A stretch of DNA of 15,851 nucleotides from an uncultured Thermoplasmata archaeon (GCA_965371185.1 CBDUXN010000071.1:1-15851), one strand, 5' to 3'. Positions 3,287 to 15,851 are shown, numbered from the stretch's first letter. Notes: generated from the sequence alone by a model not told the origin. Made by a program: numbers and translations.

Positions 3287-4282
3287 CTATGAAGCAATTA
3301 TGCAGGTTTGGGGCTCTCTAAGAGTTGACGTGGTCTTAAGTAGCTGCAGTATGCCCTTATACTCTTCATGTTGTCGTATACCCTCATGCCTAACATGCGT
3401 TCCCTGAATGTAAAGTCCAGGACCCTTATGTCTATCCTTTTCACTCTTCAGGTCTATATCCCTTAAACCTCGTCCTATCCTGTACCTTATAAATATAAGA
3501 TCTTGGATGATTTGGGTTATATCCTTTACTTTAACGAGATCTCCATCCCAGTCCTTTAAAACATCGTAATACTTATCCTCGATCTTCTTGAGGAGTTTTC
3601 TCAGGTCTTCCCGTATTCCTTCTGGCTCCGCACCCGAGAAAACAACCACAAGGAAAACCAATTCGCCGTGTTCAATTAAAATTCTTGTGTTTCCGTATAC
3701 CAGTGTTTCCAGGCCTGTTTCTGCACTTTCTTCGTCCCCGAAGGCATCTTTCACAAAGGCTTGTACAGCGCTCAGCATCGATCCAACTATATGCTCATCC
3801 AGTGTATTCGCACCGTGGCGTGCAGCATGTGATACAACATTCCCGGCATCATTTATCAGGAACGCCTCCCGGATCGTAACATACTTCTGGGAATCATCAA
3901 CCAAGGAGGGGATAGTAATATCAGAAAAAGTGCTAACAAACGGTCGATAAGGGTCAGAAACCTCAAGTAAATTGGCAGTTTTAAAGGTTTCCAATCTTGA
4001 ATGCAGGCTCTTTATGCCAGTTCCCTTATCCGAAAACTCCTTTGTAAACCCATTATTGTGGGGTCGTAGACAATCCGCTATTATTTCATTTTGATTTTTA
4101 TTGGCTATCTTCTTTATGACTTCTATTTTCTGCCTTTCTTGAAAATCAGAGAATGAGCAAATCGGGCTTTCTCCCCTGCCAATTAGAAGCTTTACCAGGC
4201 TATCCCCCTTTACCTGGCCAACAGAATTTCCATTAGGAAGATGCAGCAGCTTCCTAAGGTCTTTCTGTTGTTTTTTCACCAT
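3287..4282 (-). CDS. Hypothetical protein with a central Roadblock/LC7 (MglB-like) domain
   Basis: A 331-aa ORF with an ATG start (atggtgaaaaaacaacag on the minus strand). The segment KYVTIREAFLINDAGNVVSHAARHGANTLDEHIVGSMLSAVQAFVKDAFG...TLVYGNTRILIEHGELVFLVVVFSGAEP follows the Roadblock/LC7 pattern: a beta-strand (D/G-rich, 'vvs'), then a helix ('aamaaal'), then a second beta pair ('llvvvad'). I recognise nothing in the N- or C-terminal extensions. Confidence 0.7.
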   Translation of the reverse strand: MVKKQQKDLRKLLHLPNGNSVGQVKGDSLVKLLIGRGESPICSFSDFQERQKIEVIKKIANKNQNEIIADCLRPHNNGFTKEFSDKGTGIKSLHSRLETFKTANLLEVSDPYRPFVSTFSDITIPSLVDDSQKYVTIREAFLINDAGNVVSHAARHGANTLDEHIVGSMLSAVQAFVKDAFGDEESAETGLETLVYGNTRILIEHGELVFLVVVFSGAEPEGIREDLRKLLKKIEDKYYDVLKDWDGDLVKVKDITQIIQDLIFIRYRIGRGLRDIDLKSEKDRHKGPGLYIQGTHVRHEGIRQHEEYKGILQLLKTTSTLREPQTCIIAS

Positions 4283-4409: not shown

Positions 4410-4760
4410 GTGGGTAGATTAGACCTAATTATTCCTGACGATATTGAAAGAGAACTGAGAATCGAATTGATAAACAGATTTGGCGGCAAAAAAGGTGATC
4501 TGTCAAGAGCTGTTGCAGAAGCCATAGAAATGTGGATCAATAGCCCACCATTACAGGAGTCTACAATAGAGGATTTAAAAAAGACTGCCATGAATTTAGA
4601 GCTTCTTCCTAGTGAAAGAGAAAAAGCCACTAAAATGTTAAGCGGATTGGGTAAAGCCGCTCTCCCAGCACTTAATGAAATATCCAAGAATCAAGGCCTT
4701 TTACCATCACAAAGAGAGATGGCATTGGATGAGATCGATCGGATCTTAAAGGGGGTCTAG
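4410..4760 (+). CDS. Ribbon-helix-helix (CopG/Arc/MetJ-like) DNA-binding protein with a C-terminal helical extension
   Basis: The start is GTG at 4410; no in-frame ATG lies between the upstream TAA at 4383 and this codon, and GGTGA sits 4 nt upstream. The N-terminus GRLDLIIPDDIERELRIELINRFGGKKGDLSRAVAEAIEMWI fits the RHH pattern of a beta-strand with alternating hydrophobics followed by helix-turn-helix. The C-terminal ~60 aa hold an internal repeat (LLPSEREKA..., LLPSQREMA...). Confidence 0.7.
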   Translation: MGRLDLIIPDDIERELRIELINRFGGKKGDLSRAVAEAIEMWINSPPLQESTIEDLKKTAMNLELLPSEREKATKMLSGLGKAALPALNEISKNQGLLPSQREMALDEIDRILKGV

Positions 4761-4764
4761 ATAA

Positions 4765-4830
4765 AGAGCTATAAAAAAATTTACACAAAATTTAATTAGG
4801 CTGAAAGTAGTAAAGAATGGAGGTGATTGA
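4765..4830 (+). promoter_or_regulatory. Putative BRE/TATA promoter and SD-containing leader for the coiled-coil/SPFH operon
   Basis: agagCTATAAAAAAATTT (4766-4783) lies ~50 nt upstream of the ATG at 4831 and is purine-rich immediately upstream, which is BRE-like. A strong SD, GGAGGTGA, sits 5-6 nt before the ATG. Confidence 0.35.
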
Positions 4831-5361
4831 ATGTTTGAAGGGGTTGTAGCCACAAGCGCAATAAAAGGTGTTGCTTCATCGATTGCATCGATAGGTAGAA
4901 AGTATTCGGGTTATAAACTCGATAAGAGGAAAGAGGATGATCTCGCTGTGCGAAAGAAATTGATGGATGAGATAGGCAAATCTCGAGGCCATCTAATGAA
5001 TATCGTTGAGGAATCGCACAGCAAGAAGGATGACGATACAACCAACACAGCAAAAAAGACAATCGATGAGCTGGATCTTCTTTTAAACGATATCAATTTG
5101 TCAGAAACAGGGCATAAATATCCCTTTTTTTCGGAACAAAAATCGATCAATAAGAAGTCCCTGGAAGAATTAATCGAGCACGATAAAAAATTAATCAGCA
5201 GTATCGAGAATATTACCGAAGCGAGCAAGAAGCTGGAACTCGCCATAATAGATAGAGAGGATAGAGATACTGCTTGGGAGTTGAAAAGGATCAGACAGTA
5301 TGTAACAACATGTAGAGACGAATATAAGAACAGAAGGGACTGTTTAAGGAGGGTGAAATAA
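4831..5361 (+). CDS. Small charged coiled-coil protein with an N-terminal Gly/Ala/Ser-rich amphipathic segment (hypothetical)
   Basis: 176 aa. It has an ATG start with a strong SD, and its stop overlaps the next start (TAATG at 5359-5363). The N-terminus is MFEGVVATSAIKGVASSIASIG. The remainder is highly charged with heptad-like periodicity. Confidence 0.7.
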   Translation: MFEGVVATSAIKGVASSIASIGRKYSGYKLDKRKEDDLAVRKKLMDEIGKSRGHLMNIVEESHSKKDDDTTNTAKKTIDELDLLLNDINLSETGHKYPFFSEQKSINKKSLEELIEHDKKLISSIENITEASKKLELAIIDREDRDTAWELKRIRQYVTTCRDEYKNRRDCLRRVK

Positions 5362-6704
5362 TGGCAATACACTGGAAGAATTTTATGGGTAAAAATCCTG
5401 CGAATGTACTGGCTATGAAGATACCGAAAGGCCAAATCAAAGGTTTTTTCAAGAAGGAGGTAATAATCGAACCTGGGGAAGCTGCAGTTTTAATTAAGGA
5501 CGGAAGAATAGAGGAGGAACTTACACAGACTAAACTTAAGAACTTTGGGGGCGGATTCGGGGGATGGCTGGAAAGAGTTACAGGGAAAGGCGAGGACGAA
5601 TTATTATTGTTCGTAGACACAAATACAATGGATTTGGAACTCCCAGTGAAAGCAACTTCGAAAGATCACACCGAAATAAATGGCACCTGTACGGTTAGAT
5701 GCCAGGTGAATGTTAGTGAGGCCATAAAAATAATAGGAGCGATGGAAGGTAAAGATACCTTAACTAAGACTCAATTGCAGAATAGGATACAATCTGAGAT
5801 GGCCACTGCAGTTTTATCAAATAAGATCGCGAATTACTCTGCCGATGAATTTCATGGAAATATCAATATCATCAAGGATATAGAGACCTCAGCATCAATT
5901 GAAATGCGAAAAACCTTTGAGTTGTGGGGTCTGAAGCTCATCAAAATGTACACAAATTGGGATAAAAACGCGTTTGATGAATTGATGGAATATCGGAATG
6001 CATGGGAGCTTTATGATGCGAGAAAGGACGTCAAGTACGAGGGCGAAATCAAAGAGATGGAAAAAAACCATGGTATATTAAAAAAGCGTGCAGAACAGGC
6101 ACATGACCAGAGATTAGCAGGGGAATTGAATGAGATCGATGTCAAGCGTTTGTGGGAGGACTATGCCCAGGAAGTGGATAAGCGCAGAAGAATGCACGAG
6201 ATCATGCTTCAGAAAGAGGAAAAAAAGGTTCAAATTGAAATTGACGATATGGAGTTAAAGCAGGATAATAAAGAAATTGAAGAGGCCATCAAATGGAAAG
6301 ATAAGTTGCAGAGACAAAAGATGGAAAAACAGAAACAAGAGGTTGATCAGCAGATAAAAATGTATCAAGGTATGCAGCTTGAGTCAAAAAAGGTGGACGC
6401 AAGCATTGAGAAAGAAAGGATCAGAATGGAACCTGAAAAGGCAAAGTCTAACTTAGAAATTTACGAGAAAGCTCAGGAAATAGAGAAAAAACATCAATTA
6501 GAGATGGTAGAGCAGATGGCCAAACTCACTCAGGCTGCTAAACCCGATGTACCGCAAACATTGGTGCAGGGGGGAAGTCCGACACCTGTGGTTAGCGTTC
6601 AAACCCAGGAACCTCAGAAAGACGAGGTCAAATGTCCGAGCTGCGATGCTAATATTCAGGCGGGGATGACTTTCTGCCCGTCCTGTGGGACGAAAATAGA
6701 ATAG
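5361..6704 (+). CDS. SPFH (band-7/flotillin-like) domain protein with a long E/K/Q-rich coiled-coil and a C-terminal CxxC...CxxC zinc ribbon; no TM segment
   Basis: 447 aa. AGGAGGGTGA lies upstream of the ATG, which overlaps the upstream stop (translational coupling). Residues ~33-200 match the SPFH domain pattern: IIEPGEAAVLIKDGRI, then FVDTNTMDLELPVKATSKDHTEINGTCTVRCQV, then LTKTQLQNRIQSEMATAVLSNKIANYSADEF...IETSASIEMRKTFELWGLKLIKMYTNW. Compare stomatin/HflK, e.g. 'AWGIKVERVEIKDV'. A ~200-aa EKQ-rich coiled coil follows, like a flotillin. The C-terminus is CPSCDANIQAGMTFCPSCGTKIE. Confidence 0.85.
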   Translation: MAIHWKNFMGKNPANVLAMKIPKGQIKGFFKKEVIIEPGEAAVLIKDGRIEEELTQTKLKNFGGGFGGWLERVTGKGEDELLLFVDTNTMDLELPVKATSKDHTEINGTCTVRCQVNVSEAIKIIGAMEGKDTLTKTQLQNRIQSEMATAVLSNKIANYSADEFHGNINIIKDIETSASIEMRKTFELWGLKLIKMYTNWDKNAFDELMEYRNAWELYDARKDVKYEGEIKEMEKNHGILKKRAEQAHDQRLAGELNEIDVKRLWEDYAQEVDKRRRMHEIMLQKEEKKVQIEIDDMELKQDNKEIEEAIKWKDKLQRQKMEKQKQEVDQQIKMYQGMQLESKKVDASIEKERIRMEPEKAKSNLEIYEKAQEIEKKHQLEMVEQMAKLTQAAKPDVPQTLVQGGSPTPVVSVQTQEPQKDEVKCPSCDANIQAGMTFCPSCGTKIE

Positions 6705-6980: not shown

Positions 6981-9900
6981 ATGAAAGGAAAGGTAATTGT
7001 TCTTATGATTATCGTTGGAATGATAGCACTGGCGATTATTGTAGCTGGACCTTCTCAAGCAGAGAATTATGGACTGGAAGAGACCCTTATTGGGCATTCT
7101 AATTATGTACATAGTGTTTCGTGGAATCCTAACGGAACCCTATTGGCTTCTGGAGCTAACGATCATGAAATTAAAATATGGGATACAAGTACTTGGCAGA
7201 TTACACGTACACTAACAGGGCATACTGATAAAGTATTTAGCGTCTCTTGGAATCCTAATGGGACTCTATTAGCCTCTGGTTCTGCCGACCATACAATCAA
7301 GATATGGAATACGAGCACTTGGGAAAACCTACAAACACTGATAGGGCATTCGGGCGTTGTTACGAGCGTTACATGGAGTCCTGATGGAAAACAGTTGGCC
7401 TCAGGGTCCTATGACTATAAAATCAAAATCTGGAATACGAGTACTTGGCAGAACACAGACACGCTAACTGCGCATGAGTGGTATTCTTCCCTGGTGGCTT
7501 GCGTTTCATGGAGCCCTGATGTAAGCCTCATGGCCTCTGGCGGATCGGGCAATGAACTTAGGATATGGAACACGAGCACCTGGGGACTTGTCAAAACGGT
7601 AGATACGCAAACTTGGCCTGGTGGAACCGTAAGGAGCGTTTCGTGGAGCCCCGATGGAAGCCAATTAGCTTCTGTACCTCCCAACGAAAACTCCTTCAAG
7701 ATATGGAATACCACTACATGGGATAACACTCAAACAATCATAGGGCATACAGCCCAGGTGAGTAGCCTCTCATGGAACCCTAATGGGAACCGCCTGGCCT
7801 CTGGATCCGACGATAATACAATCAGGATATGGAATACGAGCACATGGACGAATTTACAGACAACGGCATATCCTACCGACGTGTTATGTATCTCGTGGAG
7901 CCCCAATGGGACTCGTCTAGCTTCCGGATTTAGAACCAACAATATTACGATATTAGGTATCGATTCCGACGCAGACGGCATAGCAGACGTAAAAGACACC
8001 TTTCCAGCCGATTCCACGCAGTGGATTGACACAGATGGTGATGGATACGGGGATAATTCGACAGGTAACAATCCCGACTTAATCCCGGATGATCCAACGC
8101 AATGGAATGATTCCGATGGAGATGGGTATGGGGATAACCAGACTGGGAATAACCCTGACATATATCCAAATGATAACACGCAATGGATTGACACAGATGG
8201 TGATGGATACGGGGATAATTCGACTGGTAATAATCCCGACTTGTTCCCAGCGGACTTTTCTCAATGGAACGACTCTGATGGAGATGGATATGGGGATAAC
8301 CAGACAGGGAACAGCCCTGATGCATTTCCAAATGATAACACGCAATGGATTGACACAGATGGCGACGGATATGGAGATAATTCGACTGGTAACAATCCTG
8401 ACTTGTTCCTAGCGGACTTAACTCAATGGAACGACTCTGATGGAGATGGATATGGGGATAACCAGACAGGGAATAGCCCTGATGCATTTCCATTCGATCG
8501 TACACAATGTAATGATACGGACGATGATGGATATGGCGATAATCCAAACGGGAACCAACCCGATCATATGCTGACGGTTTGGGGTAATTCAACCATAGAT
8601 TATTTCGGTTGTCCAGATGATGACGGTGATGGCCATTCAAACCTAACAGATTCTTTTCCTTTTGACCCGGCCGCAAGTTTCGATTCCGATGGAGATAGCT
8701 ACCCTGACGAATGGAACCTTGGAAAGACCGCTTCTGACTCCACCACTGGTCTTAATCTCGATGTCTTCCCCAATGATCCCGGCGAATGGGGAGATATCGA
8801 TGGCGATGGCATTGGTGACAACTCCGACTTTCTCCCACAACTTCATAATTTAATATTTTATGGTATCATAGTTATTATCATTATTATACTATTATTTTTA
8901 GTATCTTTGATAGGTATAAAAAATATAGTAGAATCGAGGAGCTATACCTCCAATTTCATCAGTTGGATTGCTAGTTTAAAGGTTATGAAAGATGAAAAGC
9001 CACCAAAAGAGCTATTGAGAACTCTTGAGCCACTATTTGAAAAATACAATGAACTTTCAAATGATAAATCTATTCCACAAAAAATAGACAACTTGAATGG
9101 TGAGTTTTATAAACTTGAGGATATCTCAGCAAACTATGAAGGTATGTCAAAAAGAAGGACAAAAGCAGGCAAACAGGCTAAAGGGCGTAAAAAGGAGATT
9201 GACGAGAACATCATCGCTCTCAAAGATGAAATTTGGCGTTTAAACAAGTTAAATGGTGAGAGAGAACAAAATATTTTGGAATTGGAGGATAAGGCTAGGG
9301 ATATTATCTTGGCCTGGAGAGCGGGTAAAACCATTAGCAGTGAAACCGCTATAGATAAAGCCGAGAGAAGACAAAAAGAGATCAACGCATCTGTTTCAGG
9401 AATATTGGAGCGAGTTAAAACTATCACAAAAATAGCAGACATTAAAGAGTCTGAAGAAATTACCGTTGATGTTACAAGGATAATGACTATCGTGGGTGAA
9501 AAAGTAAAGTTTGGTGTTAAAGTACAGAATGATTATGATTTTACTATCAACGACATTGACGTTCGGATTAGCACACCAAGAAAGGCTCTTGATATAATTG
9601 AACCTCATTCAAATGGTATTGCTCATATCAATAATTTATCTCCTGGTGAATCGCAAACTATTATTTTCATGTTAAAACCTTTAAGGTGCGTCGATACAAA
9701 AATCACAGGAGTTGTGGAGTTTAAAGATCCGAGAGGTGAATTGCAGGTTAAAAAAATCAGACCAAAGGCCACTGGGTTGGTATGCCCGTTTATAGAGCCC
9801 TATATAATAACTTCAGGCGATTATGTAAAAATGACAGAAACTTTGGAATCCACTCAAACCGGCTTTACCATAAAAGGCATAACAGTAGACTATATTCGGG

Positions 9901-10334
9901 ATAAATTGCTTGATCATACGGAATATATGCACGATGTAGATATCAAGAAGTTTAGTTTTGATGGTGTTGAGAGTTATATGATTTGGCAGAGTGGAAAATC
10001 CAAAGTACAAAATTTAATTTATCTATTAACAACAGTCATTACCAAGGATAAGGAATTAGACATTGTGAACACAGCTTTTTCAGCCTACTGTAGCCAAGAT
10101 CATGGTTTGCCATCATTTCTTGGTGAGGTTGTAGATACCTTAAAAGCGAATGTAAAAGCTGAAAAGGGAGCAATGGAAATCTCTAGTATCAATATAAATC
10201 AAGCGATAAATATGGTGGATTGTGTTGTGAATAGGAGTAGTATTGGAGGCGGAGGTTCTGGGAATATATGCATTGATATGAAGGATAGCATCGTTCATAA
10301 GAGCAGAATATCTGGTTCTGATGATTTAGAATAG
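6981..10334 (+). CDS. Type-I membrane protein: signal peptide, extracellular 7-blade WD40 propeller, ~9 TSP3-like Ca-binding repeats, TM helix, coiled-coil, and a conserved C-terminal cytoplasmic module shared with the 10700 gene
   Basis: 1117 aa with an ATG start. The signal peptide is MKGKVIVLMIIVGMIALAIIVAGPSQA|EN. Seven repeats of the WD40 type are present: GH...VxSVSWNPNGTLLASGSxDxTIKIWNTSTW. The canonical WD dipeptide is replaced in each blade by W-N-T-S-T-W, i.e. an N-glycosylation sequon per blade. The Ca-binding repeats have the form DTDGDGYGDNSTGNNPDLFPxDxTQWNDSDGDGYGDNQTGNSPDAFPND (DxDxDG motif). The TM helix is LIFYGIIVIIIIILLFLVSLIGI (~nt 8850-8920). This is followed by a ~190-aa coiled-coil and then the shared module at ~nt 9480-10260. 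Confidence 0.9.
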   Translation: MKGKVIVLMIIVGMIALAIIVAGPSQAENYGLEETLIGHSNYVHSVSWNPNGTLLASGANDHEIKIWDTSTWQITRTLTGHTDKVFSVSWNPNGTLLASGSADHTIKIWNTSTWENLQTLIGHSGVVTSVTWSPDGKQLASGSYDYKIKIWNTSTWQNTDTLTAHEWYSSLVACVSWSPDVSLMASGGSGNELRIWNTSTWGLVKTVDTQTWPGGTVRSVSWSPDGSQLASVPPNENSFKIWNTTTWDNTQTIIGHTAQVSSLSWNPNGNRLASGSDDNTIRIWNTSTWTNLQTTAYPTDVLCISWSPNGTRLASGFRTNNITILGIDSDADGIADVKDTFPADSTQWIDTDGDGYGDNSTGNNPDLIPDDPTQWNDSDGDGYGDNQTGNNPDIYPNDNTQWIDTDGDGYGDNSTGNNPDLFPADFSQWNDSDGDGYGDNQTGNSPDAFPNDNTQWIDTDGDGYGDNSTGNNPDLFLADLTQWNDSDGDGYGDNQTGNSPDAFPFDRTQCNDTDDDGYGDNPNGNQPDHMLTVWGNSTIDYFGCPDDDGDGHSNLTDSFPFDPAASFDSDGDSYPDEWNLGKTASDSTTGLNLDVFPNDPGEWGDIDGDGIGDNSDFLPQLHNLIFYGIIVIIIIILLFLVSLIGIKNIVESRSYTSNFISWIASLKVMKDEKPPKELLRTLEPLFEKYNELSNDKSIPQKIDNLNGEFYKLEDISANYEGMSKRRTKAGKQAKGRKKEIDENIIALKDEIWRLNKLNGEREQNILELEDKARDIILAWRAGKTISSETAIDKAERRQKEINASVSGILERVKTITKIADIKESEEITVDVTRIMTIVGEKVKFGVKVQNDYDFTINDIDVRISTPRKALDIIEPHSNGIAHINNLSPGESQTIIFMLKPLRCVDTKITGVVEFKDPRGELQVKKIRPKATGLVCPFIEPYIITSGDYVKMTETLESTQTGFTIKGITVDYIRDKLLDHTEYMHDVDIKKFSFDGVESYMIWQSGKSKVQNLIYLLTTVITKDKELDIVNTAFSAYCSQDHGLPSFLGEVVDTLKANVKAEKGAMEISSININQAINMVDCVVNRSSIGGGGSGNICIDMKDSIVHKSRISGSDDLE
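7975..8570 (+). repeat. Intragenic tandem array of ~3.5 copies of a 162-bp unit (two 81-bp half-units) encoding the TSP3-like Ca-binding repeats
   Basis: Unit-A copies start at ~8016, 8178 and 8340: cacgca(g/a)tggattgacacagatggtgatggatacggggataattcgac.ggtaa.aatcc.gactt. Unit-B copies start at ~8099, 8262 and 8424: caatggaa.ga.tc.gatggagatgg.tatggggataaccagac.ggga...ccctga. The period is exactly 162 bp, and copies 2 and 3 differ at only a few positions. The array decays from ~8500. Confidence 0.8.
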
Positions 10335-10699: not shown

Positions 10700-12322
10700 A
10701 TGGAAGATCAAAAAATAACAAATCTACGGATTTTAATATTCTTCGGGATATTTTTAATGATAATAGGTTTAATAGGACCATGGTATAGTTATAGTTACGA
10801 ACCAGAGGAGTATGATAGTTATTATGATAAATATGAGTTCAACGGTTTCTACACCTATTATCACTATGAGGATTACTATGTTGTGGAGAATAGCTTTAAT
10901 GAAATAACGCCCATGTCTTTGCTAATTTCATGGCCTTTCCTTTTATGCATATACTTATCTCTTTTCTCTGTAATAACATTTAGATTTAAATTTCCTCTTT
11001 TAATTCCAATAGTCACAACTTCGGAAATTTGCTCCTATATTATTCTCTTGGCAATTATTGGTCAAATAAACAGGATCGGATGGGGGATACCTTTCCTATT
11101 TATTGGAAACGCGTTTGTTTTTATAGGATTACCAGGCTTAAGAGATAAATTAAAAGAAACAATAATGGGTTCACTTGGATCGACTTCAGAAAATACTATT
11201 TCACTGGTTCAAGTTGCAGAAAAAACCGGGTTCAGTAAGGTTGCGGTCAAAGATATGGTAAAATATCTTCTAACAAAGGACAAGATTGGAGGACATCTGG
11301 ACGGCCCTAATTTGATGTATTACAAGATATCGCCCTTTGTCTCACCTGTTTCTAGTGGACCCCAAATCCAATCTATTCCCCTTACTGAGGAGGTGGAACA
11401 AAAAGTAATGGAAGAAGATATCTCCCAACCACCAGTAACCTCTGAAGAAACAGAGAGGGAAGAAGATATCTCCACACAAATAACACCTGATGAAGAAACT
11501 ATTCCTCCAACTGAAAATATCGGCATAAAGAGCGCAATATCCTATAAAGGCGCAAAAGTGGTATATAAGGTAAAAGTTGAGAATAATTCTAAGGAACCTA
11601 TTGCAAGGATCAGGGCCAAACTCTATCTTTCTGATAATGTTTTTATCCTTGATAAGGATGAAAAAGGATTGGATCTCCTACAACCAGAAGAGTCCGCAAC
11701 GGTTACATTTAACCTTCGACCAAAAGGTGAATGTGGAAATGTGGGTATATCTGGAAAAGTGGTCTATTATGATTATAAGATAAAAGAATACAAAGAGCTG
11801 AAAATTGAGTCCAAAACAACCGCAATTATCTGCCCTATGATGAAGGTTGTTCAAACAGATGAGGATAGTTGGCGGGACAATGTCAGCAGAATGATCAAGG
11901 TTGAAGAAACAACTGAGGAAATCCCGATCGAGGCGAAAGCCCTTTTTGATGTGGTGGTAGATGTGGTCAGGGATATCAACTGCTATATGCTGGAACCTAA
12001 AATTACAGATGCCTCTGGAATGTTTCGTGGAGTGGGAAGATTCTATTGTGAGGGTGTAAAAGGTCTTAAGTATGCCATTCATGTCGAGGTTATAGGGGGT
12101 AAAACCAAATCTAAATTGATATTAAAAGCCTTTGCAGAAAATGAAGAATCACTAATAGGTTTCTATCACTGCATTTTGGATGAGATTGAAAAGAGAACCA
12201 AGATTAAGGAGTATATACATGATGCTCTAATTGTACATGGGGATTATGTAACTGGCGAGAAGATTGAGGTGAGGGATAGTGTGGTTAGTAGGTCGAGTAT
12301 AAAAGGGGACAAAAAGGATTAG
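10700..12322 (+). CDS. Membrane-tethered winged-helix protein: 4 TM helices, cytoplasmic wHTH, acidic linker, and the C-terminal module shared with the 6981 gene
   Basis: 540 aa with an ATG start. The four TM helices are ILIFFGIFLMIIGLIGPWYSY, MSLLISWPFLLCIYLSLFSVITF, LLIPIVTTSEICSYIILLAIIGQI and GWGIPFLFIGNAFVFIGLPGL. Loop 1 is acid/aromatic-rich and probably outside. Positive residues follow TM2 and TM4, placing N- and C-termini inside. The wHTH-like segment is TISLVQVAEKTGFSKVAVKDMVKYLLTKDKIGGHLDG. An E/T/P-rich acidic linker precedes the ~260-aa C-module (nt ~11535-12300), which is homologous to the C-terminus of the 1117-aa protein. Confidence 0.85.
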   Translation: MEDQKITNLRILIFFGIFLMIIGLIGPWYSYSYEPEEYDSYYDKYEFNGFYTYYHYEDYYVVENSFNEITPMSLLISWPFLLCIYLSLFSVITFRFKFPLLIPIVTTSEICSYIILLAIIGQINRIGWGIPFLFIGNAFVFIGLPGLRDKLKETIMGSLGSTSENTISLVQVAEKTGFSKVAVKDMVKYLLTKDKIGGHLDGPNLMYYKISPFVSPVSSGPQIQSIPLTEEVEQKVMEEDISQPPVTSEETEREEDISTQITPDEETIPPTENIGIKSAISYKGAKVVYKVKVENNSKEPIARIRAKLYLSDNVFILDKDEKGLDLLQPEESATVTFNLRPKGECGNVGISGKVVYYDYKIKEYKELKIESKTTAIICPMMKVVQTDEDSWRDNVSRMIKVEETTEEIPIEAKALFDVVVDVVRDINCYMLEPKITDASGMFRGVGRFYCEGVKGLKYAIHVEVIGGKTKSKLILKAFAENEESLIGFYHCILDEIEKRTKIKEYIHDALIVHGDYVTGEKIEVRDSVVSRSSIKGDKKD

Positions 12323-12347
12323 AAGTAGATGCTAAAACGATTGCTGA

Positions 12348-12381
12348 TCTTTTATTTCGTAATGGGTGTGATAGATTTTTG
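12348..12381 (+). terminator. Candidate oligo-T terminator downstream of the 540-aa gene
   Basis: T-tracts cTTTTaTTTcg (12350-12357) and aTTTTTg (12376-12380) lie 25-55 nt after the TAG at 12320-12322. Archaeal intrinsic termination uses T-runs. The signal is weak. Confidence 0.25.
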
Positions 12382-12388
12382 ACTGTTT

Positions 12389-12475
12389 ATCACAATTCTT
12401 ATAATACCCAAACCCTTTTGGGGATTAGGCCCAAAATCGGTTGCTCGATAATATCACATGAAAAGGAGGCATACC
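12389..12475 (+). promoter_or_regulatory. Copy B: promoter and 5'UTR of the carboxyltransferase operon (TATA TTATAATA 12399-12406, palindrome 12407-12423, SD AAGGAGG 12463-12469)
   Basis: The A/T box is preceded by the conserved ATCACAATTC (BRE-like position). The predicted TSS is ~12428, about 25 nt from the TATA centre. The SD lies 6 nt before the ATG at 12476. A bacterial-style TTGACT sits only 15 nt upstream of TATAAT and is not conserved in copy A, so I favour an archaeal-type promoter. Confidence 0.5.
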
Positions 12476-14026
12476 ATGACCATGGAAGACAAGATCCAGG
12501 AGCTGAGGGAAAAGAAAGAGCAGGCCAGGCTTGGCGGGGGAAAAGAACGAATAGAAAAGCAGCACTCGCAGGGCAAACTCACAGCCAGGGAGAGAGTAGA
12601 GAAGGTCCTGGACGATGGAAGCTTCATCGAGCTGGATGCCTTTGCGCTGCACGAATGCACTGATTTCGGGATGGATAAGAAGCGCATTCTCGGGGACGGG
12701 GTTGTTACAGGCTACGGTACCATCGACAGCCGCCTTGTTTACATATTCTCCCAGGATTTCACGGTTTTTGGCGGCTCTCTGGGATGGCGATTCGCCGAAA
12801 AGATTTGCAAGATCATGGACCTGGCGATGAGGAACGGTGCACCGGTCATAGGTATCAACGATTCTGGCGGCGCAAGGATCCAGGAAGGCGTTGTGAGCCT
12901 TGGAGGGTACGCGGAAATTTTCTTCAGGAATGTTATAGCCTCCGGAGTGGTGCCTCAGATCTCTGCAATAATGGGGCCGTGCGCTGGCGGTGCGGTGTAT
13001 TCACCTGCAATGACGGATTTCATACTCATGGTCAAAGAGACCAGTAACATGTTCATCACAGGGCCGGAAGTAATAAAAACTGTGACTAACGAAGAGGTTA
13101 CTTTCGAGGAGCTGGGCGGTGCCATGACCCACAACACGAAAAGCGGCGTTGCACACTTCGCATGCGAGGACGAGGAGGACTGTGCCAGGATGATAAAAAA
13201 GCTGCTCAGTTATATACCCTCCAACAACCTGGACGATCCGCCATATATGGAGACAAACGACGATCCGAACAGGAAGGACATGGAGCTGGTCAACATCGTT
13301 CCCGACGATCCAAATAAACCGTACGATATCAAGGACGTCATCCTAAGGGTTGTGGACAACAGGGATTTCTTTGAGGTGCACCCGTACTGGGCAAAGAACA
13401 TAGTGGTTGGATTTGCAAGGCTTGACGGTCATCCAGTGGGCGTGGTGGGAAACCAGCCCAATTTTCTTGCAGGCACGCTTGACATAAATTCCTCAACAAA
13501 AGGCGCCCGCTTCGTCAGGTTCTGCGATGCATTCAACATCCCCTTGCTGACCTTCGTTGACGTTCCAGGCTTTCTGCCGGGCACGGCCCAGGAGTACGGC
13601 GGCATCATAAGGAACGGCGCGAAACTGCTGTACGCTTACTGCGAGGCAACCGTTCCGAAAATCACGGTCATTACCAGGAAAGCCTACGGCGGGGCGTACG
13701 ATGTCATGTGCTCGAAGCATATCCGGGCAGATATTAATTTTGCGTGGCCCTCTTCCGAAATAGCTGTCATGGGCCCTGACGGCGCTGTGAACATCGTGTT
13801 CAGAAAGGAAATAGAGAAGGCTGAGGACAAGAAAAAGAGAAAGGAGGAACTGGTCGCTGAATACAGGAAAAAATTTGCAAATCCCTATATAGCAGCAGAG
13901 AAGGGGTATATAGACGATATCATCGAGCCGCAGGAGACGAGACCGAGGGTGATAAATGCTCTGCATACCCTATTGAACAAACGAGAACCGCGCCCTGCAA
14001 AAAAGCACGGCAACATACCGCTGTAA
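12476..14026 (+). CDS. Acyl-CoA carboxyltransferase of the propionyl-CoA carboxylase beta / methylmalonyl-CoA decarboxylase alpha / transcarboxylase 12S family
   Basis: The track ORF starts at 12458, but that ATG overlaps the SD. I prefer ATG 12476 ([13 protein letters not shown]...), 6 nt after AAGGAGG. The N-terminus is [41 protein letters not shown]. Further diagnostic segments are [42 protein letters not shown], the oxyanion and CoA-binding regions, and [25 protein letters not shown]. These are all characteristic of PccB/MmdA-type carboxyltransferases. The ORF is ~517 aa, the typical length. Confidence 0.9.
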
Positions 14027-14049
14027 CCTTTACATCGGGGGAGAAATAA

Positions 14050-15546
14050 TTGGAGAAAAAGCCGATCCAAATCACTGACACCGCCCTCAGGGACGCCCAT
14101 CAGTCCCTGCTCGCCACGAGAATGCGCACGGAGGACATGCTGCCAATTGCTGAGAAGATGGACTCCATCGGCTACTGGTCTGTGGAGATGTGGGGCGGCG
14201 CGACATTCGATTCATGCCTAAGGTTCCTAAAGCAGGACCCCTGGGAGAGAATAAGGCTTTTAAAAGAGGCCATGCCAAATACGAAGCTCCAGATGCTGCT
14301 TAGGGGGCAGAACATCGTTGGATACAAGCATTACCCTGATGATGTTGTGGAGAAGTTCGTGGAAACTGCCCACAAGAACGGCATCGATGTTTTCAGAATA
14401 TTCGATGCACTTAACGACGTCAGGAACATGAAAACCGCCTTGGAATCCACAAAGAAAGCAGGGGCGATTGCAGAATGCTGCGTGTGCTATACCATAAGTC
14501 CAGTGCACACAAACGATGTTTTTGTGAACATGGCAACGGAACTGGAAGGCATGGGCTCTGATATGCTGTGCATAAAGGATATGGCAGGCCTGCTCTCGCC
14601 AGGTCATGCCTTCGAGCTGGTCACCAAATTGAAGGAAAACATCTCGATCCCAATACACATGCACTGCCACGACACCAGCGGCATGGCTTCGGCTGCTTAT
14701 CTCAAGGGGATAGAGGCTGGAGCAGAAATCATCGACACGGCGATATCAAGCCTCTCAAAGGGCACATCACAACCTCCAACAGAGACCATGGTTGCCATGC
14801 TGGGAGACACGATCTACGATACAGGCTTAGATTTGGAATTACTCGGAGAGGTAGCAGACCATTTCACTAATGTAAGAAAAAAATATCGCATCTATGAGAG
14901 CAAGTTCACTGGAATTGATACGGATGTTCTTCAGTTTCAGATACCGGGAGGGATGATGTCCAACCTTGTGAAGCAACTGCGGGACCAAAATGCAGAGGAT
15001 AAACTGCCAGAGGTCCTTAAAGAAGTGCCCATTGTCAGGAAGGAGCTCGGTTATCCCCCTTTGGTAACGCCCTCCAGCCAGATCGTGGGAACCCAGGCGA
15101 CACTGAATGTGCTCCTCAAGGAGAGATACAAGATGATACCAAAGGAGACAAAGAATCTTATCAAGGGGCTTTACGGCAGACCCGCGGCTCCAATAGACGA
15201 GAATGTGAAGAAAATGGTGATAGGGGATGAGGAGCCAATGACATCCCGACCCGCAGATTCATTGGAGCCTGAATTGGAGCGGTTGAAAAAGGAGCTGGGC
15301 AGCGACAACATCGAGGATGTACTCAGCTACGCGCTCTTTCCACAGGTTGCAAAAAGGTTCTTTGAAGAGAGGGACGGCAAGGTCATCGACGAAGCAGAGG
15401 TTGCAGCAATAGCTGCTGCTCTCGCCTCCAGGTTCTTGAAGACCGAGGATAGAGGGATCTCTCGAAAAATCGAGCGCGGGAATGAGCCCAGCGCATGGGG
15501 CATGGCGGGGAGGCTTGAATTGATGAATGCAAGGGGAAGGATATGA
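14050..15546 (+). CDS. Pyruvate/oxaloacetate carboxyltransferase subunit (PycB / OadA / transcarboxylase 5S type), lacking a fused biotinyl domain
   Basis: The start is TTG at 14050: an in-frame TAA lies immediately upstream at 14047-14049, the next ATG is 24 codons into the conserved region, and GGGGGAG sits 7 nt upstream. The N-terminus is IQITDTALRDAHQSLLATRMRTEDML. Further segments are GYWSVEMWGGATFD, the HMGL-like TIM-barrel motifs (HMHCHDTSGMA) and a conserved C-terminal region. 498 aa. The stop overlaps the next ATG (ATGA at 15543-15546). Confidence 0.9.
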   Translation: MEKKPIQITDTALRDAHQSLLATRMRTEDMLPIAEKMDSIGYWSVEMWGGATFDSCLRFLKQDPWERIRLLKEAMPNTKLQMLLRGQNIVGYKHYPDDVVEKFVETAHKNGIDVFRIFDALNDVRNMKTALESTKKAGAIAECCVCYTISPVHTNDVFVNMATELEGMGSDMLCIKDMAGLLSPGHAFELVTKLKENISIPIHMHCHDTSGMASAAYLKGIEAGAEIIDTAISSLSKGTSQPPTETMVAMLGDTIYDTGLDLELLGEVADHFTNVRKKYRIYESKFTGIDTDVLQFQIPGGMMSNLVKQLRDQNAEDKLPEVLKEVPIVRKELGYPPLVTPSSQIVGTQATLNVLLKERYKMIPKETKNLIKGLYGRPAAPIDENVKKMVIGDEEPMTSRPADSLEPELERLKKELGSDNIEDVLSYALFPQVAKRFFEERDGKVIDEAEVAAIAAALASRFLKTEDRGISRKIERGNEPSAWGMAGRLELMNARGRI

Positions 15547-15851
15547 GAAGGTTCATGCTGAACATCATCGGCAACAACTATGATATAGAAATCGAGAGAA
15601 AGGATGGCAGAAGGCTCTATGTCTCTGTAAACGGTAAGAGATACGAAGCCTCCCTTGAGCAGGACTCGGGCAAGACCATGCTCATAGCGGTGGATGGCGG
15701 GCTTTACAATGTAGTGTTGGAAGGCGAACCAAGCACTGGTAAAATAAATGCAAGTGTGAACAACAGGGTTCGTATGGTAGAGCATATGGATTTTTTGAGC
15801 AGAGGCGTTGCTCCCAGAGAACATATTCCATTGGAACCCAAGGATGATGTT
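15543..15851 (+). CDS. Probable biotin carboxyl carrier (1.3S-like) subunit, N-terminal part (continues beyond the window)
   Basis: The ATG at 15543 is coupled to the upstream stop (ATGA), and the frame is open to the window end (103 codons): MRRFMLNIIGNNYDIEIERKDGRRLYVSVNGKRYEASLEQ...GLYNVVLEGE. The N-terminal 'NGxxYxVxVE'-type hairpin resembles the N-termini of 1.3S/BCCP subunits. Position after a 12S-5S pair supports the call. The biotinyl-lysine motif (A/E-M-K-M) would lie beyond the window. Confidence 0.5.
   Translation, partial: MRRFMLNIIGNNYDIEIERKDGRRLYVSVNGKRYEASLEQDSGKTMLIAVDGGLYNVVLEGEPSTGKINASVNNRVRMVEHMDFLSRGVAPREHIPLEPKDDV

Follow-up and report, generated by a model that had tools for sequence, protein, structure and literature searches.

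An archaeal SPFH protein, arCOG15283, has been described as "SPFH family protein, ESCRT system component" in the Meth_adaptin ESCRT loci (Makarova 2024, PMC10936438). Its members include Methanosalsum zhilinae WP_013898576 and EHR76414, a marine group II Thermoplasmata protein is among them, and the ESCRT systems of Thermoplasmata are described in the same work as minimal, consisting of Vps4, ESCRT-III and arCOG07400 (PMC10936438). In Bacillus subtilis, the cytosolic SPFH protein YdjI/SamI, which has a band-7 domain and a C-terminal zinc ribbon (PMC11237479), depends on the membrane proteins YdjG/H for recruitment and in turn localises PspA (PMC8581546; bioRxiv 10.64898/2026.02.06.704340).

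Here we analyzed a contig of 15,851 nucleotides from an uncultured Thermoplasmata archaeon (the window), which encodes an SPFH protein of 447 aa and, immediately upstream, a small helical protein of 176 aa. Our preferred reading, with a probability of roughly 0.55, is that the two form a scaffold at the membrane face and its dedicated adaptor, accessory to ESCRT-type remodelling.

The gene pair and the SPFH protein

Both open reading frames are exactly as first noted (Table 1). The TAATG overlap at their junction was also read as predicted, indicating at the level of sequence that the two genes are translationally coupled, and a GGAGG-type Shine-Dalgarno motif precedes both start codons. Since homologues were found with E-values down to 1e-148 for the 447-aa protein and 1e-77 for the 176-aa protein, these are real genes rather than chance ORFs; a profile of the 176-aa family matched its members down to about 1e-83.

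Table 1. Features of the gene pair and its surroundings (positions in the window).
Feature	Position	Strand	Basis
RHH-like ORF, 116 aa, upstream of the pair	4410..4760	+	Pfam RHH_6 E=3.1e-5, 24.9 bits, under the 27-bit cut-off
Gene for the 176-aa four-helix-bundle (4HB) partner	4831..5361	+	ORF, AF2 model, family profile
N-terminal residues 1-24 (MFEGVVATSAIKGVASSIASIGRK), G/A/S-rich, weakly amphipathic	4831..4902	+	Eisenberg muH, KD19
Signature Y-x-G-Y-x4-R-K-E-D-D-L-A-V-R, residues 25-41, start of helix 1	4903..4953	+	49-sequence alignment
Signature G-H-K-Y-P-F-F-S, residues 94-101, end of helix 2 into the helix 2/3 loop	5110..5133	+	Alignment
TAATG stop/start overlap	5359..5363	+	Read from sequence: TAA 5359-5361 shares A5361 with ATG 5361-5363
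Gene for the 447-aa TM-less SPFH - coiled-coil - zinc-ribbon protein	5361..6704	+	ORF, homologues, AF2 model, Foldseek
SPFH (band-7) domain, residues ~1-200	5361..5960	+	Foldseek PDB, Band_7 in family members
Coiled-coil region, residues 204-392	5970..6536	+	DSSP on AF2 model; full-length alignment to flotillin, MVP
Conserved P-Q-T-L-V-Q-G motif, residues 398-404, between coiled coil and zinc ribbon	6552..6572	+	15-sequence alignment
C-terminal zinc ribbon C425-x2-C428-x10-C439-x2-C442	6624..6698	+	Pfam, alignment, sequence
~265-aa cytoplasmic module (Ig-like + alpha/beta + DSVVxRS), residues 827-1092 of the 1117-aa protein	9459..10256	+	Homology
~265-aa module again, residues 273-538 of the 540-aa membrane protein (gene 10700-12322)	11516..12313	+	phmmer

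The AF2 model of the 447-aa protein (pLDDT 74.8) matched prohibitin, HflK/C, stomatin, flotillin and major vault protein in Foldseek, with PDB E-values of 2.8e-11 for prohibitin (8rrh), 8e-10 for HflK/C (7vhq) and 1.8e-9 for stomatin (9z7u). Isolated stomatin SPFH domains matched the model at TMt 0.7-0.76 (mouse stomatin SPFH, 4fvj, 0.76). The predicted SPFH alpha/beta fold places the protein in the SPFH/band-7 superfamily. Pfam and NCBIfam scans of its own sequence returned the zinc ribbon only, with no Pfam match to Band_7 (PF01145) at E<=1; across the family, Band_7 matched 13 of 15 members (best E=4.6e-7; the precomputed matches are flagged as weak). Band_7_1 (PF13421) had no match in the 447-aa protein at E<=1 and was absent among the families matched by the 15 homologues; it was matched weakly by a bacterial neighbour in L017 and by P0206. 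PDB sequence searches with the 176-aa and 447-aa proteins as single queries gave nothing useful.

The predicted coiled coil spans about 190 aa, as a single helix of ~135 residues (204-338), a break and a second helix (359-392), and the model aligns over its full length to flotillin (9bq2, 9l3g) and to major vault protein. Between coiled coil and zinc ribbon, the 15-sequence alignment has the consensus AAKQxxPxTLVQG, with K394 and T400 at least 90% conserved. The zinc ribbon was identified by Pfam as Zn_ribbon_3 (E=7.3e-8, residues 422-446) and Zn_Ribbon_1 (5.8e-6), and its four Cys are at least 90% conserved across the family alignment; some relatives have two or three zinc ribbons (P0012, P0015 and a 546-aa protein of L007). 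No TM segment was found in the 447-aa protein, the maximum Kyte-Doolittle 19-mer being 0.83. The fold match, this hydropathy maximum, the long helix and the Cys residues together bear out the original prediction of a TM-less SPFH protein with a flotillin-like coiled coil and a C-x2-C-x10-C-x2-C ribbon. The further suggestion that such an architecture was undescribed does not hold, as SPFH, coiled coil and zinc ribbon are the layout of arCOG15283 (PMC10936438), and YdjI already joins band-7 to a zinc ribbon (PMC11237479). The 447-aa SPFH protein itself is not a new kind.

The long coiled-coil "wall" helix and C-terminal cap are shared with HflK/C, flotillin-1/2, stomatin, prohibitin and QmcA-YbbJ, the SPFH families that include the top structural matches. 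Cage-forming SPFH families have an N-terminal TM segment, hairpin or acylation, whereas the 447-aa protein has no TM anchor, and its zinc-ribbon terminus is absent from the HflK/C, flotillin, stomatin, prohibitin and QmcA families. Prokaryotic SPFH genes typically have a small operon partner (NfeD/YbbJ), as in the window; however, the partner in QmcA-YbbJ is an NfeD OB-fold membrane protein, and that of the window is a soluble or amphipathic 4HB protein.

The four-helix-bundle partner

The AF2 model of the 176-aa protein (pLDDT 80.7, pTM 0.74) is all-helical, with helices at residues 33-64, 68-96, 108-140 and 147-174. The protein had no Pfam, NCBIfam, PADLOC or PDB sequence match, and its family, with 68 clusters at 90% identity and 398 representatives at 50% identity (E<=1e-3), appears to be previously undescribed. 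Two signatures stand out in the alignment of 49 sequences. At the start of helix 1, Y28, E35, D36 and D37 are invariant and Y25, K34, L38 and A39 at least 90% conserved, and this motif is kept in bacterial and DUF4178-fused relatives (P0214, P0225); in the second signature, G94 is invariant and H95, Y97, F99 and F100 are at least 90% conserved.

The G/A/S-rich N-terminus first noted in this partner is amphipathic-like (Eisenberg muH 0.52, mean H 0.13), with KD19 of 1.28, below the TM range, and AF2 pLDDT below 50. Residues 1-24 are a candidate membrane-binding helix. Most archaeal 4HB members have a hydrophobic or amphipathic N-terminus of 15-25 aa; it is Lys-rich in the marine clade and almost absent in a few members.

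The 176-aa protein had been likened to PspA, Vipp1 and ESCRT-III. As a divergent member of that superfamily it would form polymers on membranes and be positioned by the SPFH protein, much as YdjI positions PspA in B. subtilis. The two do resemble each other in being helical and charged, with a possible N-terminal amphipathic helix and an association with SPFH genes, and SPFH-PspA linkage is known in bacteria (PMC8581546). However, neither PspA_IM30 (PF04012) nor Snf7 (PF03357) was among the Pfam matches listed for the 49 4HB members (E<=10). Aligned with hhalign, the 4HB profile reached a probability of 0.4% with E. coli PspA and of 1.2% with the Snf7-like proteins of related operons, in a comparison of low power for very remote homology, as a control of single-sequence Snf7-like proteins against PspA was likewise negative. 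A search of PDB sequences with the 4HB profile gave zero matches, and Foldseek against the PDB gave nothing at E<=1e-3 and listed neither ESCRT-III nor PspA among its best 50 matches. In another structural comparison CHMP3 and Shrub aligned over only 75-79 residues (ranks 28 and 49), and the structural matches overall are generic, at the level of helical hairpins. The folds differ as well: the 4HB has four equal helices of 28-33 residues each, and ESCRT-III a long alpha1-alpha2 hairpin followed by short alpha3 to alpha5. The alpha0-like N-terminal segment varies within the 4HB family, has low pLDDT and is not specific to the superfamily. Finally, bona fide Snf7-like genes already sit beside the 4HB gene in related operons. 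We consider the PspA/ESCRT-III reading already largely refuted and very improbable.

Two other resemblances were considered. T3SS_needle_F matches in 10 of 49 4HB members (best E=3e-4) were rejected as a helical-hairpin or composition artefact without support from structural searches. The best natural structural analogue is the cytosolic domain of Chlamydia IncA (PDB 6e6a), with 7-15% identity and a non-significant Foldseek E of ~0.15, a resemblance that we read as analogy of fold; IncA is a bacterial inclusion-membrane fusion protein, unlike the archaeal 4HB protein.

Conservation of the pair and its variants

The conserved two-gene module predicted around the TM-less SPFH protein was recovered in other genomes: about 20 of 21 informative contigs encode both 4HB and SPFH proteins, with 4HB identities of 32-73%, and many uncultured archaea have the pair. 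The closest relatives of the 447-aa protein come from Thermoplasmata/Thermoplasmatota MAGs, and a contig scan with one narrow peptide pattern returned five loci, all from Thermoplasmatota or uncultured archaea. The two genes are adjacent in the window and in L001, L004/5/6/14/31, L009, L010/11, L013, L015, L016, L021, L022-L026, L032, L033 and L039. Junctions in relatives are tight, with gaps of 0 nt (L007), 2 nt (L001, L039) or 13-16 nt (L004, L009, L010). Gene order is reversed in L012/L027, and probably also in L036/37, and the SPFH gene is on the opposite strand in L028. SPFH homologues without an adjoining 4HB gene were found in L002 (P0011) and in the bacterial L008 (P0015); the 460-aa gene upstream of P0015 was discarded as an equivalent of the bacterial protein P0172 described below (BLASTP E=2.8, no 4HB-family match). 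The original prediction had named absence of profile similarity together with absence of conserved pairing as evidence against it; we found the former and not the latter.

The 4HB also occurs in larger proteins. P0206 is a fusion of a Band_7_1 SPFH domain to a 4HB, and other fusions join the 4HB to DUF4178. The bacterial proteins P0172, P0194 and P0158 carry a signal peptide, a CsgG/LpoB-like domain, PKD or SH3 domains, a TM segment and a C-terminal 4HB. In bacteria, the 4HB forms the cytoplasmic end of a protein that spans the membrane once and whose gene adjoins one for an SPFH-coiled-coil-zinc-ribbon protein; directly after P0172, this is a 624-aa protein with a double zinc ribbon, an SPFH domain, a coiled coil and a zinc ribbon.

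ESCRT genes in related operons

In five contigs (L021, L022, L023, L024 and L026), the pair is followed by genes for a Lys-rich coiled-coil protein of 318 to ~530 aa, one or more Snf7-like proteins (Pfam Snf7 up to 32.7 bits, against a cut-off of 27.3 bits) and a terminal Vps4-like protein (MIT-like, AAA E=1e-41, AAA_lid_3). These contigs come from no fewer than two divergent lineages: L021 is one, and the near-identical contigs of the L022-L026 group form the other. At the P0059 locus, an AAA gene and a 186-aa gene are nearby. No ESCRT-III or Vps4 genes were found in the window (the whole 15.9-kb contig), within 8 kb on either side of the pair in the closest relative L001, or in the marine clade (L004, L010, L013, L015, L016), so the ESCRT link may be lineage-specific. 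The 4HB of the window is 44-46% identical to the ESCRT-linked copies versus 32-36% to the marine copies without ESCRT genes. The idea of a membrane-remodelling module thus stands in part, through the ESCRT-III genes that neighbour the pair in relatives, and not through homology of the 176-aa protein to PspA or ESCRT-III, which was not detectable.

Comparison with described systems

Compared by published description, the 447-aa protein and arCOG15283 (428 aa) are alike in size and share an archaeal SPFH domain, a coiled coil and a C-terminal zinc ribbon. In relatives, the gene is found together with those for ESCRT-III, Vps4 and a coiled-coil protein, an arrangement also present in M. zhilinae, whose partner protein is coiled-coil + wHTH. 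The differences are the lack of ESCRT-III and Vps4 in the window and the small 4HB gene tightly coupled upstream of its SPFH gene; the table in PMC10936438 shows no such neighbour for the M. zhilinae SPFH gene. The cluster accessions MDP6156112 and MDP7266303 were not among the listed arCOG15283 members. The 4HB-SPFH-ESCRT-III-Vps4 operons of the relatives do not fit the description of Thermoplasmata systems as minimal (PMC10936438).

With YdjI/SamI (pspA-ydjGHI), the window protein shares a TM-less cytosolic SPFH protein, a C-terminal zinc ribbon and a link to the ESCRT-III superfamily. Recruitment of YdjI/SamI needs separately encoded membrane proteins, which resembles the logic proposed here of an adaptor bringing an SPFH scaffold near ESCRT-III or PspA. 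The components differ: YdjI is assigned to Band_7_1 (PF13421), and relatives of the window protein match Band_7 (PF01145) instead; the adaptors are unrelated, YdjG having two zinc ribbons, an NTF2-like domain and a TM segment and YdjH a TPM domain, where the window has the 4HB; and the remodeller is PspA for YdjI, but Snf7/Vps4 in the relatives of the window pair. To our knowledge, YdjI has not been described as having a coiled coil of ~190 aa.

Neighbouring genes

The pair had been placed under an RHH regulator. Searched with phmmer, the RHH gene had no homologue in any related locus, so it is not conserved with the pair, and both this gene and a 331-aa gene were dismissed as members of the module, having no homologue at any other locus. 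Downstream, the gene at 6981-10334 encodes a 1117-aa WD40/TSP3-repeat/TM protein (WD40 Pfam match), which shares a cytoplasmic module of ~265 aa with a 540-aa membrane protein (Table 1). Homologues of this module occur in proteins beside the pair in L001 and L022/L023/L026 and beside the partner-less SPFH gene in L002, where two proteins flanking P0011 match the module of the 540-aa protein (phmmer E=4e-72 and 3e-65). A further likeness to the Meth_adaptin loci is that an Ig-like + alpha/beta module is common to two neighbouring proteins. The module matches CARDB (Ig-like) weakly (E=9e-4 to 2e-3); an adaptin-appendage identity (arCOG15284; Ig-like sandwich followed by a TBP-like platform) had no PDB or Pfam support by sequence. 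The module of the 1117-aa protein is a possible further component of the system.

Discussion

By analogy with HflK/C, flotillin, stomatin and prohibitin, the 447-aa protein, which has no anchor of its own, would use its coiled coil to assemble into a ring- or dome-shaped oligomer on the membrane, with the PxTLVQG segment and zinc ribbon presumably at the apex. The 4HB protein would be made in fixed stoichiometric coupling with it. Because of the fusion P0206 and the invariant adjacency of the two genes, the 4HB most likely binds the SPFH protein directly, and it may hold the scaffold to the membrane or control it there, by means of the amphipathic N-terminus in archaeal versions and of a true TM segment in bacterial ones. 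The module would belong to the archaeal ESCRT-associated SPFH systems; since relatives have the pair at the front of an operon that also encodes a coiled-coil protein, ESCRT-III and Vps4, it would probably serve, perhaps in this genome too, to label or arrange a patch of membrane on which ESCRT-III/Vps4-type remodelling takes place, be it budding of vesicles, sorting or repair. The two adjoining membrane proteins with the shared cytoplasmic module may be cargo or receptor adaptors.

The pair could instead act on its own, without ESCRT-III, as a scaffold for membrane stress or microdomains after the manner of YdjI/SamI or flotillin, the ESCRT adjacency being a secondary, lineage-specific recruitment. 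ESCRT genes are absent from the vicinity of the pair at most loci, the window and its closest relative among them, bacterial versions (L017, L020) lie in non-ESCRT contexts, and DUF4178, one of the fusion partners of the 4HB, is a domain of PspA-CesT polyamine operons (PMC11237479). This reading has to account, however, for the full operon with ESCRT-III and Vps4 in at least two divergent lineages, for the greater identity of the window 4HB to ESCRT-linked copies and for the ESCRT linkage of the published arCOG15283 members (PMC10936438); moreover, ESCRT genes may sit elsewhere in this genome. We regard it as possible, though on balance doubtful. A different division of labour, in which the 4HB caps the SPFH protein, either to chaperone its assembly or to inhibit it (it might, for instance, keep hold of the coiled coil or zinc ribbon until a signal comes), and membrane contact is made by the SPFH domain or by neighbouring membrane proteins, seems improbable to us. 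It is suggested by the marine clade and the few other members that are still paired without a hydrophobic N-terminus, by the invariant surface motifs RKEDDLAxR and GHKYPFFS, which suggest a specific protein-protein interface, and by the recurrence of module-bearing membrane proteins beside the pair, but in bacterial homologues the 4HB directly follows a TM segment, and most archaeal members have kept the hydrophobic or amphipathic N-terminus.

A part in anti-virus defence or in the cargo of mobile elements deserves very little credence. SPFH proteins do accompany some defence systems, transposase genes are near the pair in L001 and L022, the neighbourhood differs between lineages, and TIR_2/Prok-RING and PIN genes are near the fusion protein in L020. 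Nevertheless, PADLOC gave no significant match for either protein, the sole match lying in the coiled coil (a phospholipase effector, E=0.16), which led us to set the defence reading aside; no nuclease, NTPase or toxin effector is consistently adjacent, and the recurring neighbours are surface or membrane proteins and ESCRT genes.

Under the preferred reading of a scaffold with its adaptor, the pair bears on a general need: anchor-less SPFH proteins require a membrane recruiter, which in bacteria is understood for B. subtilis YdjI/SamI only. Here, an unannotated but conserved 4HB family is the constant genomic companion of one class of anchor-less SPFH proteins, and its fused and TM-tethered variants make the 4HB-SPFH interaction a directly testable hypothesis. 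The recently proposed archaeal SPFH-ESCRT connection is extended to Thermoplasmatota operons with ESCRT-III and Vps4, which bears on how ESCRT-III is targeted in organisms without ESCRT-I/II. A bolder generalisation, which we offer as a speculation and think rather unlikely, is that the 4HB is a widespread, unrecognised archaeal and bacterial family (~400 clusters at 50% identity; free, TM-fused or SPFH-fused) serving as a universal membrane adaptor for anchor-less SPFH-coiled-coil-zinc-ribbon cages, and that the Thermoplasmatota pair is an upstream organiser, akin to ESCRT-0/I/II, siting ESCRT-III/Vps4 budding or repair. If true, the pair would represent a prokaryotic precursor of the flotillin/ESCRT interplay, and the ESCRT systems of Thermoplasmata would not be merely "minimal".

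Architecture of the gene pair and its surroundings

The original prediction described two overlapping ORFs, the second encoding an SPFH protein with a coiled coil, a zinc ribbon and no membrane anchor, and our analysis confirmed each of these features (see table). The last A of the TAA stop codon of the first gene (5359–5361) is the first base of the ATG of the second (5361–5363), and GGAGG-type ribosome-binding sites lie upstream of both starts. An A/T-rich, TATA-like stretch around 4770–4783 (CTATAAAAAAATTT), identified by eye only, is a possible sign of a separate promoter serving the pair, downstream of an RHH-like ORF. We did not find counterparts of the RHH gene, nor of the 331-aa gene transcribed divergently from it, in other related loci; the 331-aa orphan has no family match and, judged by eye alone, looks roadblock/longin-like in its middle part.

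The 447-aa protein itself matched only zinc-ribbon models in Pfam (residues 422–446; Zn_ribbon_3, E=7e-8), with no Band_7, no NCBIfam and no meaningful PADLOC match, and a PDB sequence search added nothing. We identified 15 homologues, nearly all from uncultured archaea and one from a Verrucomicrobia MAG, several with weak Band_7 matches; scanned one by one, 13 of the 15 matched Band_7 (best E=4.6e-7). The AF2 model built from the alignment of the 15 homologues (pLDDT 74.8) consists of an alpha/beta domain (1–200), two helices (204–338 and 359–392), a disordered linker and a small ribbon. A Foldseek search of PDB with this model retrieved prohibitin (E=2.8e-11), HflK/C, stomatin, QmcA, major vault protein and flotillin-1/2, the last aligned over 370–427 columns. 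These results together confirm an SPFH protein with a flotillin-like coiled coil and a C-x2-C-x10-C-x2-C ribbon. Kyte-Doolittle hydropathy did not exceed 0.83 in any 19-residue window, and the protein therefore lacks a TM anchor. The motif AAKQxxPxTLVQG is conserved in the family directly before the zinc ribbon, and the ribbon is doubled or tripled in some members. A soda-lake sediment contig (L028) carries four successive ORFs matching the SPFH profile (E 3e-131 to 6e-6) beside its partner gene, which suggests a local paralogue expansion.

The window, a whole contig of 15,851 bp, has as its best-matching relative the Thermoplasmata archaeon MAG CP070726.1 (70–73% amino-acid identity). At the locus of the closest relative (L001), the annotation gives a partial SPFH gene (306 aa) that runs into APH-like sequence, and the adjoining protein has a stretch of X; both likely reflect assembly gaps, not genuine truncation. 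At the end of the window, GC rises from ~0.34–0.39 to ~0.50–0.52 at two metabolic genes, which may reflect their strong conservation, horizontal transfer or a chimeric contig.

Features of the window and of related loci (L-numbers)
Contig	Positions	Strand	Feature
Window	3287-4282	-	331-aa orphan
Window	4410-4760		RHH-like ORF; Pfam RHH_6, E=3e-5, slightly below cut-off
Window	4831-5361	+	176-aa protein (4HB), ORF
Window	5361-6704	+	447-aa protein (SPFH), ORF
Window	6981-10334		WD40, TSP3-like calcium-binding repeats, TM segment, coiled coil, module (9459-10256)
Window	8015-8554		Tandem DNA repeat, period 81/162, ~6 copies, 68-88% matches
Window	10700-12322		TM region, module (11516-12313)
Window	12300-15851		GC jump
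Window	12458-14026		Carboxyltransferase; Carboxyl_trans, E=2e-207
Window	14050-15546		PYC_OADA/HMGL-like gene
L001	2484-4661	-	Module-bearing gene; stretch of X
L001	8531-9958		Partial SPFH gene
L002	3245-5800	-	Module-bearing gene, flanking SPFH gene
L002	9008-10639	-	Module-bearing gene, flanking SPFH gene
L021	3290-8392		Operon: 4HB, SPFH, Lys-rich protein, Snf7-like, Vps4-like
L022	2581-7989	-	Module-bearing giant gene, divergently transcribed
L022	12551-16357		Operon: 4HB, SPFH, Lys-rich protein, Snf7-like, Vps4-like
L023	0-5093	-	Module-bearing giant gene, divergently transcribed
L023	8369-12172		Operon: 4HB, SPFH, Lys-rich protein, Snf7-like, Vps4-like
L024	4388-8343		Operon: 4HB, SPFH, Lys-rich protein, Snf7-like, Vps4-like
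L026	3901-9288	-	Module-bearing giant gene, divergently transcribed
L026	12498-16298		Operon: 4HB, SPFH, Lys-rich protein, Snf7-like, Vps4-like
L028	643-5328	-	Four SPFH-profile ORFs

A predicted four-helix-bundle family with no model in the libraries searched

The 176-aa partner had no match in Pfam, NCBIfam, PADLOC or the PDB sequences, and a first homologue search returned five relatives. A profile built from seven upstream-gene products extended the family to 68 clusters, and an exhaustive profile search to 398 representatives at 50% identity (E<=1e-3). AF2 predicts a confident four-helix bundle (4HB; pLDDT 80.7, pTM 0.74) with helices at 33–64, 68–96, 108–140 and 147–174, and low confidence for residues 1–24. 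Two signatures stand out in the alignment of 49 members: Y-x-G-Y-x4-RKEDDLA(V/I)R at the start of helix 1, and GHKYPFFS at the junction of helices 2 and 3. The N-terminal segment of the window protein is amphipathic-like (muH 0.52) and below TM grade (KD19 1.28). A similar segment of 15–25 residues is present in most archaeal members; in the marine clade a Lys-rich tail replaces it, and a few members have almost none.

The suggestion that this small protein resembles PspA or ESCRT-III found no support. The Pfam matches listed for the 49 members included neither PspA_IM30 nor Snf7, the 4HB profile search of PDB sequences was empty, and hhalign probabilities were 0.4% for E. coli PspA and 1.2% for the Snf7-like proteins of related operons. 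The control comparison of Snf7-like proteins with PspA was likewise negative, which leaves room for an extremely remote homology. Membership of the PspA/ESCRT-III superfamily has no supporting evidence, and the helix geometry is unlike that of ESCRT-III. Weak matches to T3SS_needle_F (10/49 members, best E=3e-4) and Phasin (7/49) probably reflect helical-hairpin composition.

Conservation of the pair and fusion variants

The pairing described in the original prediction is conserved: both genes are present on ~20 of the 21 informative contigs, with 32–73% identity between 4HB proteins across loci. The 4HB gene lies directly upstream of the SPFH gene in the window, L001, the L004 and L010 groups, L009, L013, L015, L016, L021, L022–L026, L032, L033 and L039; the spacing is -1 to 16 nt at most of these loci and reaches ~55 nt in L022/L023. 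In L012/L027, and probably also L036/37, the SPFH gene comes first and ~660 nt separate the two; in L028 the SPFH gene is nearby on the opposite strand. L029 is the only locus where the 4HB gene lacks a strong SPFH neighbour. Conversely, we found no adjoining 4HB gene for the SPFH homologues P0011 (L002) and the bacterial P0015 (L008).

The 4HB also occurs in fusions (P0172, P0194, P0158, P0206, P0214, P0225, P0141 and P0152; loci L017, L020). In the bacterial proteins P0172, P0194 and P0158 it forms the cytoplasmic domain at the C-terminus of a protein with one membrane pass, which also has a signal peptide and, outside the membrane, a CsgG/LpoB-like domain and PKD or SH3 domains. Directly after P0172 lies a 624-aa protein composed of a double zinc ribbon, an SPFH domain (Band_7 E=4e-4, Band_7_1 1.6e-3), a long coiled coil and a zinc ribbon. 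In P0206 the 4HB is joined to a Band_7_1 SPFH domain; further fusions are TPR+4HB, ZnR+4HB and 4HB+DUF4178, the last domain being found in PspA-CesT operons (PMC11237479). Together with the translational coupling, these fused and membrane-spanning variants argue that the 4HB would contact the SPFH protein and would normally be held at the membrane. A Cys-rich protein of 93 aa, also encoded in L020, resembles the C-terminus of a 460-aa gene upstream of P0015 in L008.

Linkage to ESCRT genes

Downstream of the pair, contig L021 encodes a Lys-rich protein of 318 aa, four Snf7-like paralogues (Pfam Snf7 scores of up to 32.7 bits, cut-off 27.3) and a 388-aa Vps4-like protein that combines an MIT-like N-terminus with a single AAA domain (E=3.5e-41) and AAA_lid_3. 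Metagenome contigs L022, L023, L024 and L026 share the order 4HB, SPFH, 318-aa homologue, one Snf7-like gene and Vps4-like gene. Across these operons the Lys-rich third protein ranges from 318 to ~530 aa, and the Snf7-like genes from 1 to 4. All of these contigs (L021–L024, L026) come from uncultured archaea. In the P0059 lineage, an AAA/AAA_lid_3 gene and a 186-aa gene are apparently nearby.

The two genes downstream of the pair have in common a ~265-aa cytoplasmic module that combines Ig-like (weak CARDB match) and alpha/beta parts with a DSVVxRS repeat or tail at its end, and has an invariant C...VCP. The module recurs beside the pair or an SPFH homologue in L001, L002, L022, L023 and L026, in large membrane or surface proteins otherwise unlike each other. 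Meth_adaptin ESCRT loci comprise Vps4, ESCRT-III, a coiled-coil + wHTH protein, two adaptin-appendage proteins and ProX (Makarova et al. 2024, PMC10936438). The two module proteins of the window recall these two appendage proteins, as well as the WD40/PQQ-propeller "adaptin-like" proteins of Halo_adaptin loci; by this analogy the module may correspond to the adaptin-appendage proteins of both locus types, and sequence searches for such a likeness gave no match. The tandem DNA repeat in the first gene encodes the DTDGDGYGDN thrombospondin-type-3-like calcium-binding repeats of its 1117-aa WD40 product.

A putative accessory to ESCRT-type remodelling

We found no ESCRT genes near the pair in the window, in L001 (+/-8 kb) or in marine loci; the window 4HB is 44–46% identical to ESCRT-linked copies versus 32–36% to marine ones. 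Of the proposed membrane-remodelling module, what stands is its conservation and, in relatives, the ESCRT connection; the PspA/ESCRT-III nature of the small protein and the novelty of the architecture do not. The best-supported mechanism, to which we assign a probability of about 0.55, is an anchor-less SPFH scaffold whose recruitment or regulation would fall to a dedicated 4HB adaptor, the two being accessory to ESCRT-III/Vps4-type remodelling. In the main alternative, the pair would act by itself as a stress or microdomain scaffold. Work from the Bramkamp lab on Bacillus subtilis showed that the membrane proteins YdjG/H recruit the cytosolic YdjI/SamI, which localises PspA (PMC8581546).

The combination of SPFH domain, coiled coil and zinc ribbon, which the original prediction did not recognise, is already known from the archaeal ESCRT component arCOG15283, whose members include a marine group II Thermoplasmata sequence (PMC10936438). 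A PSP survey reports YdjI as band-7 plus C-terminal zinc ribbon (PMC11237479). In M. zhilinae, unlike in the window, no 4HB is listed beside the SPFH gene. We found no description of the 4HB partner and no model for it in Pfam, NCBIfam or PADLOC, and every database name for its members is "hypothetical protein". Thermoplasmata ESCRT systems have been called minimal (PMC10936438); the operons of the ESCRT-linked contigs are richer. What appears to be new is a broadly distributed 4HB partner family of an already known class of SPFH proteins, together with the layouts of putative Thermoplasmatota ESCRT operons.
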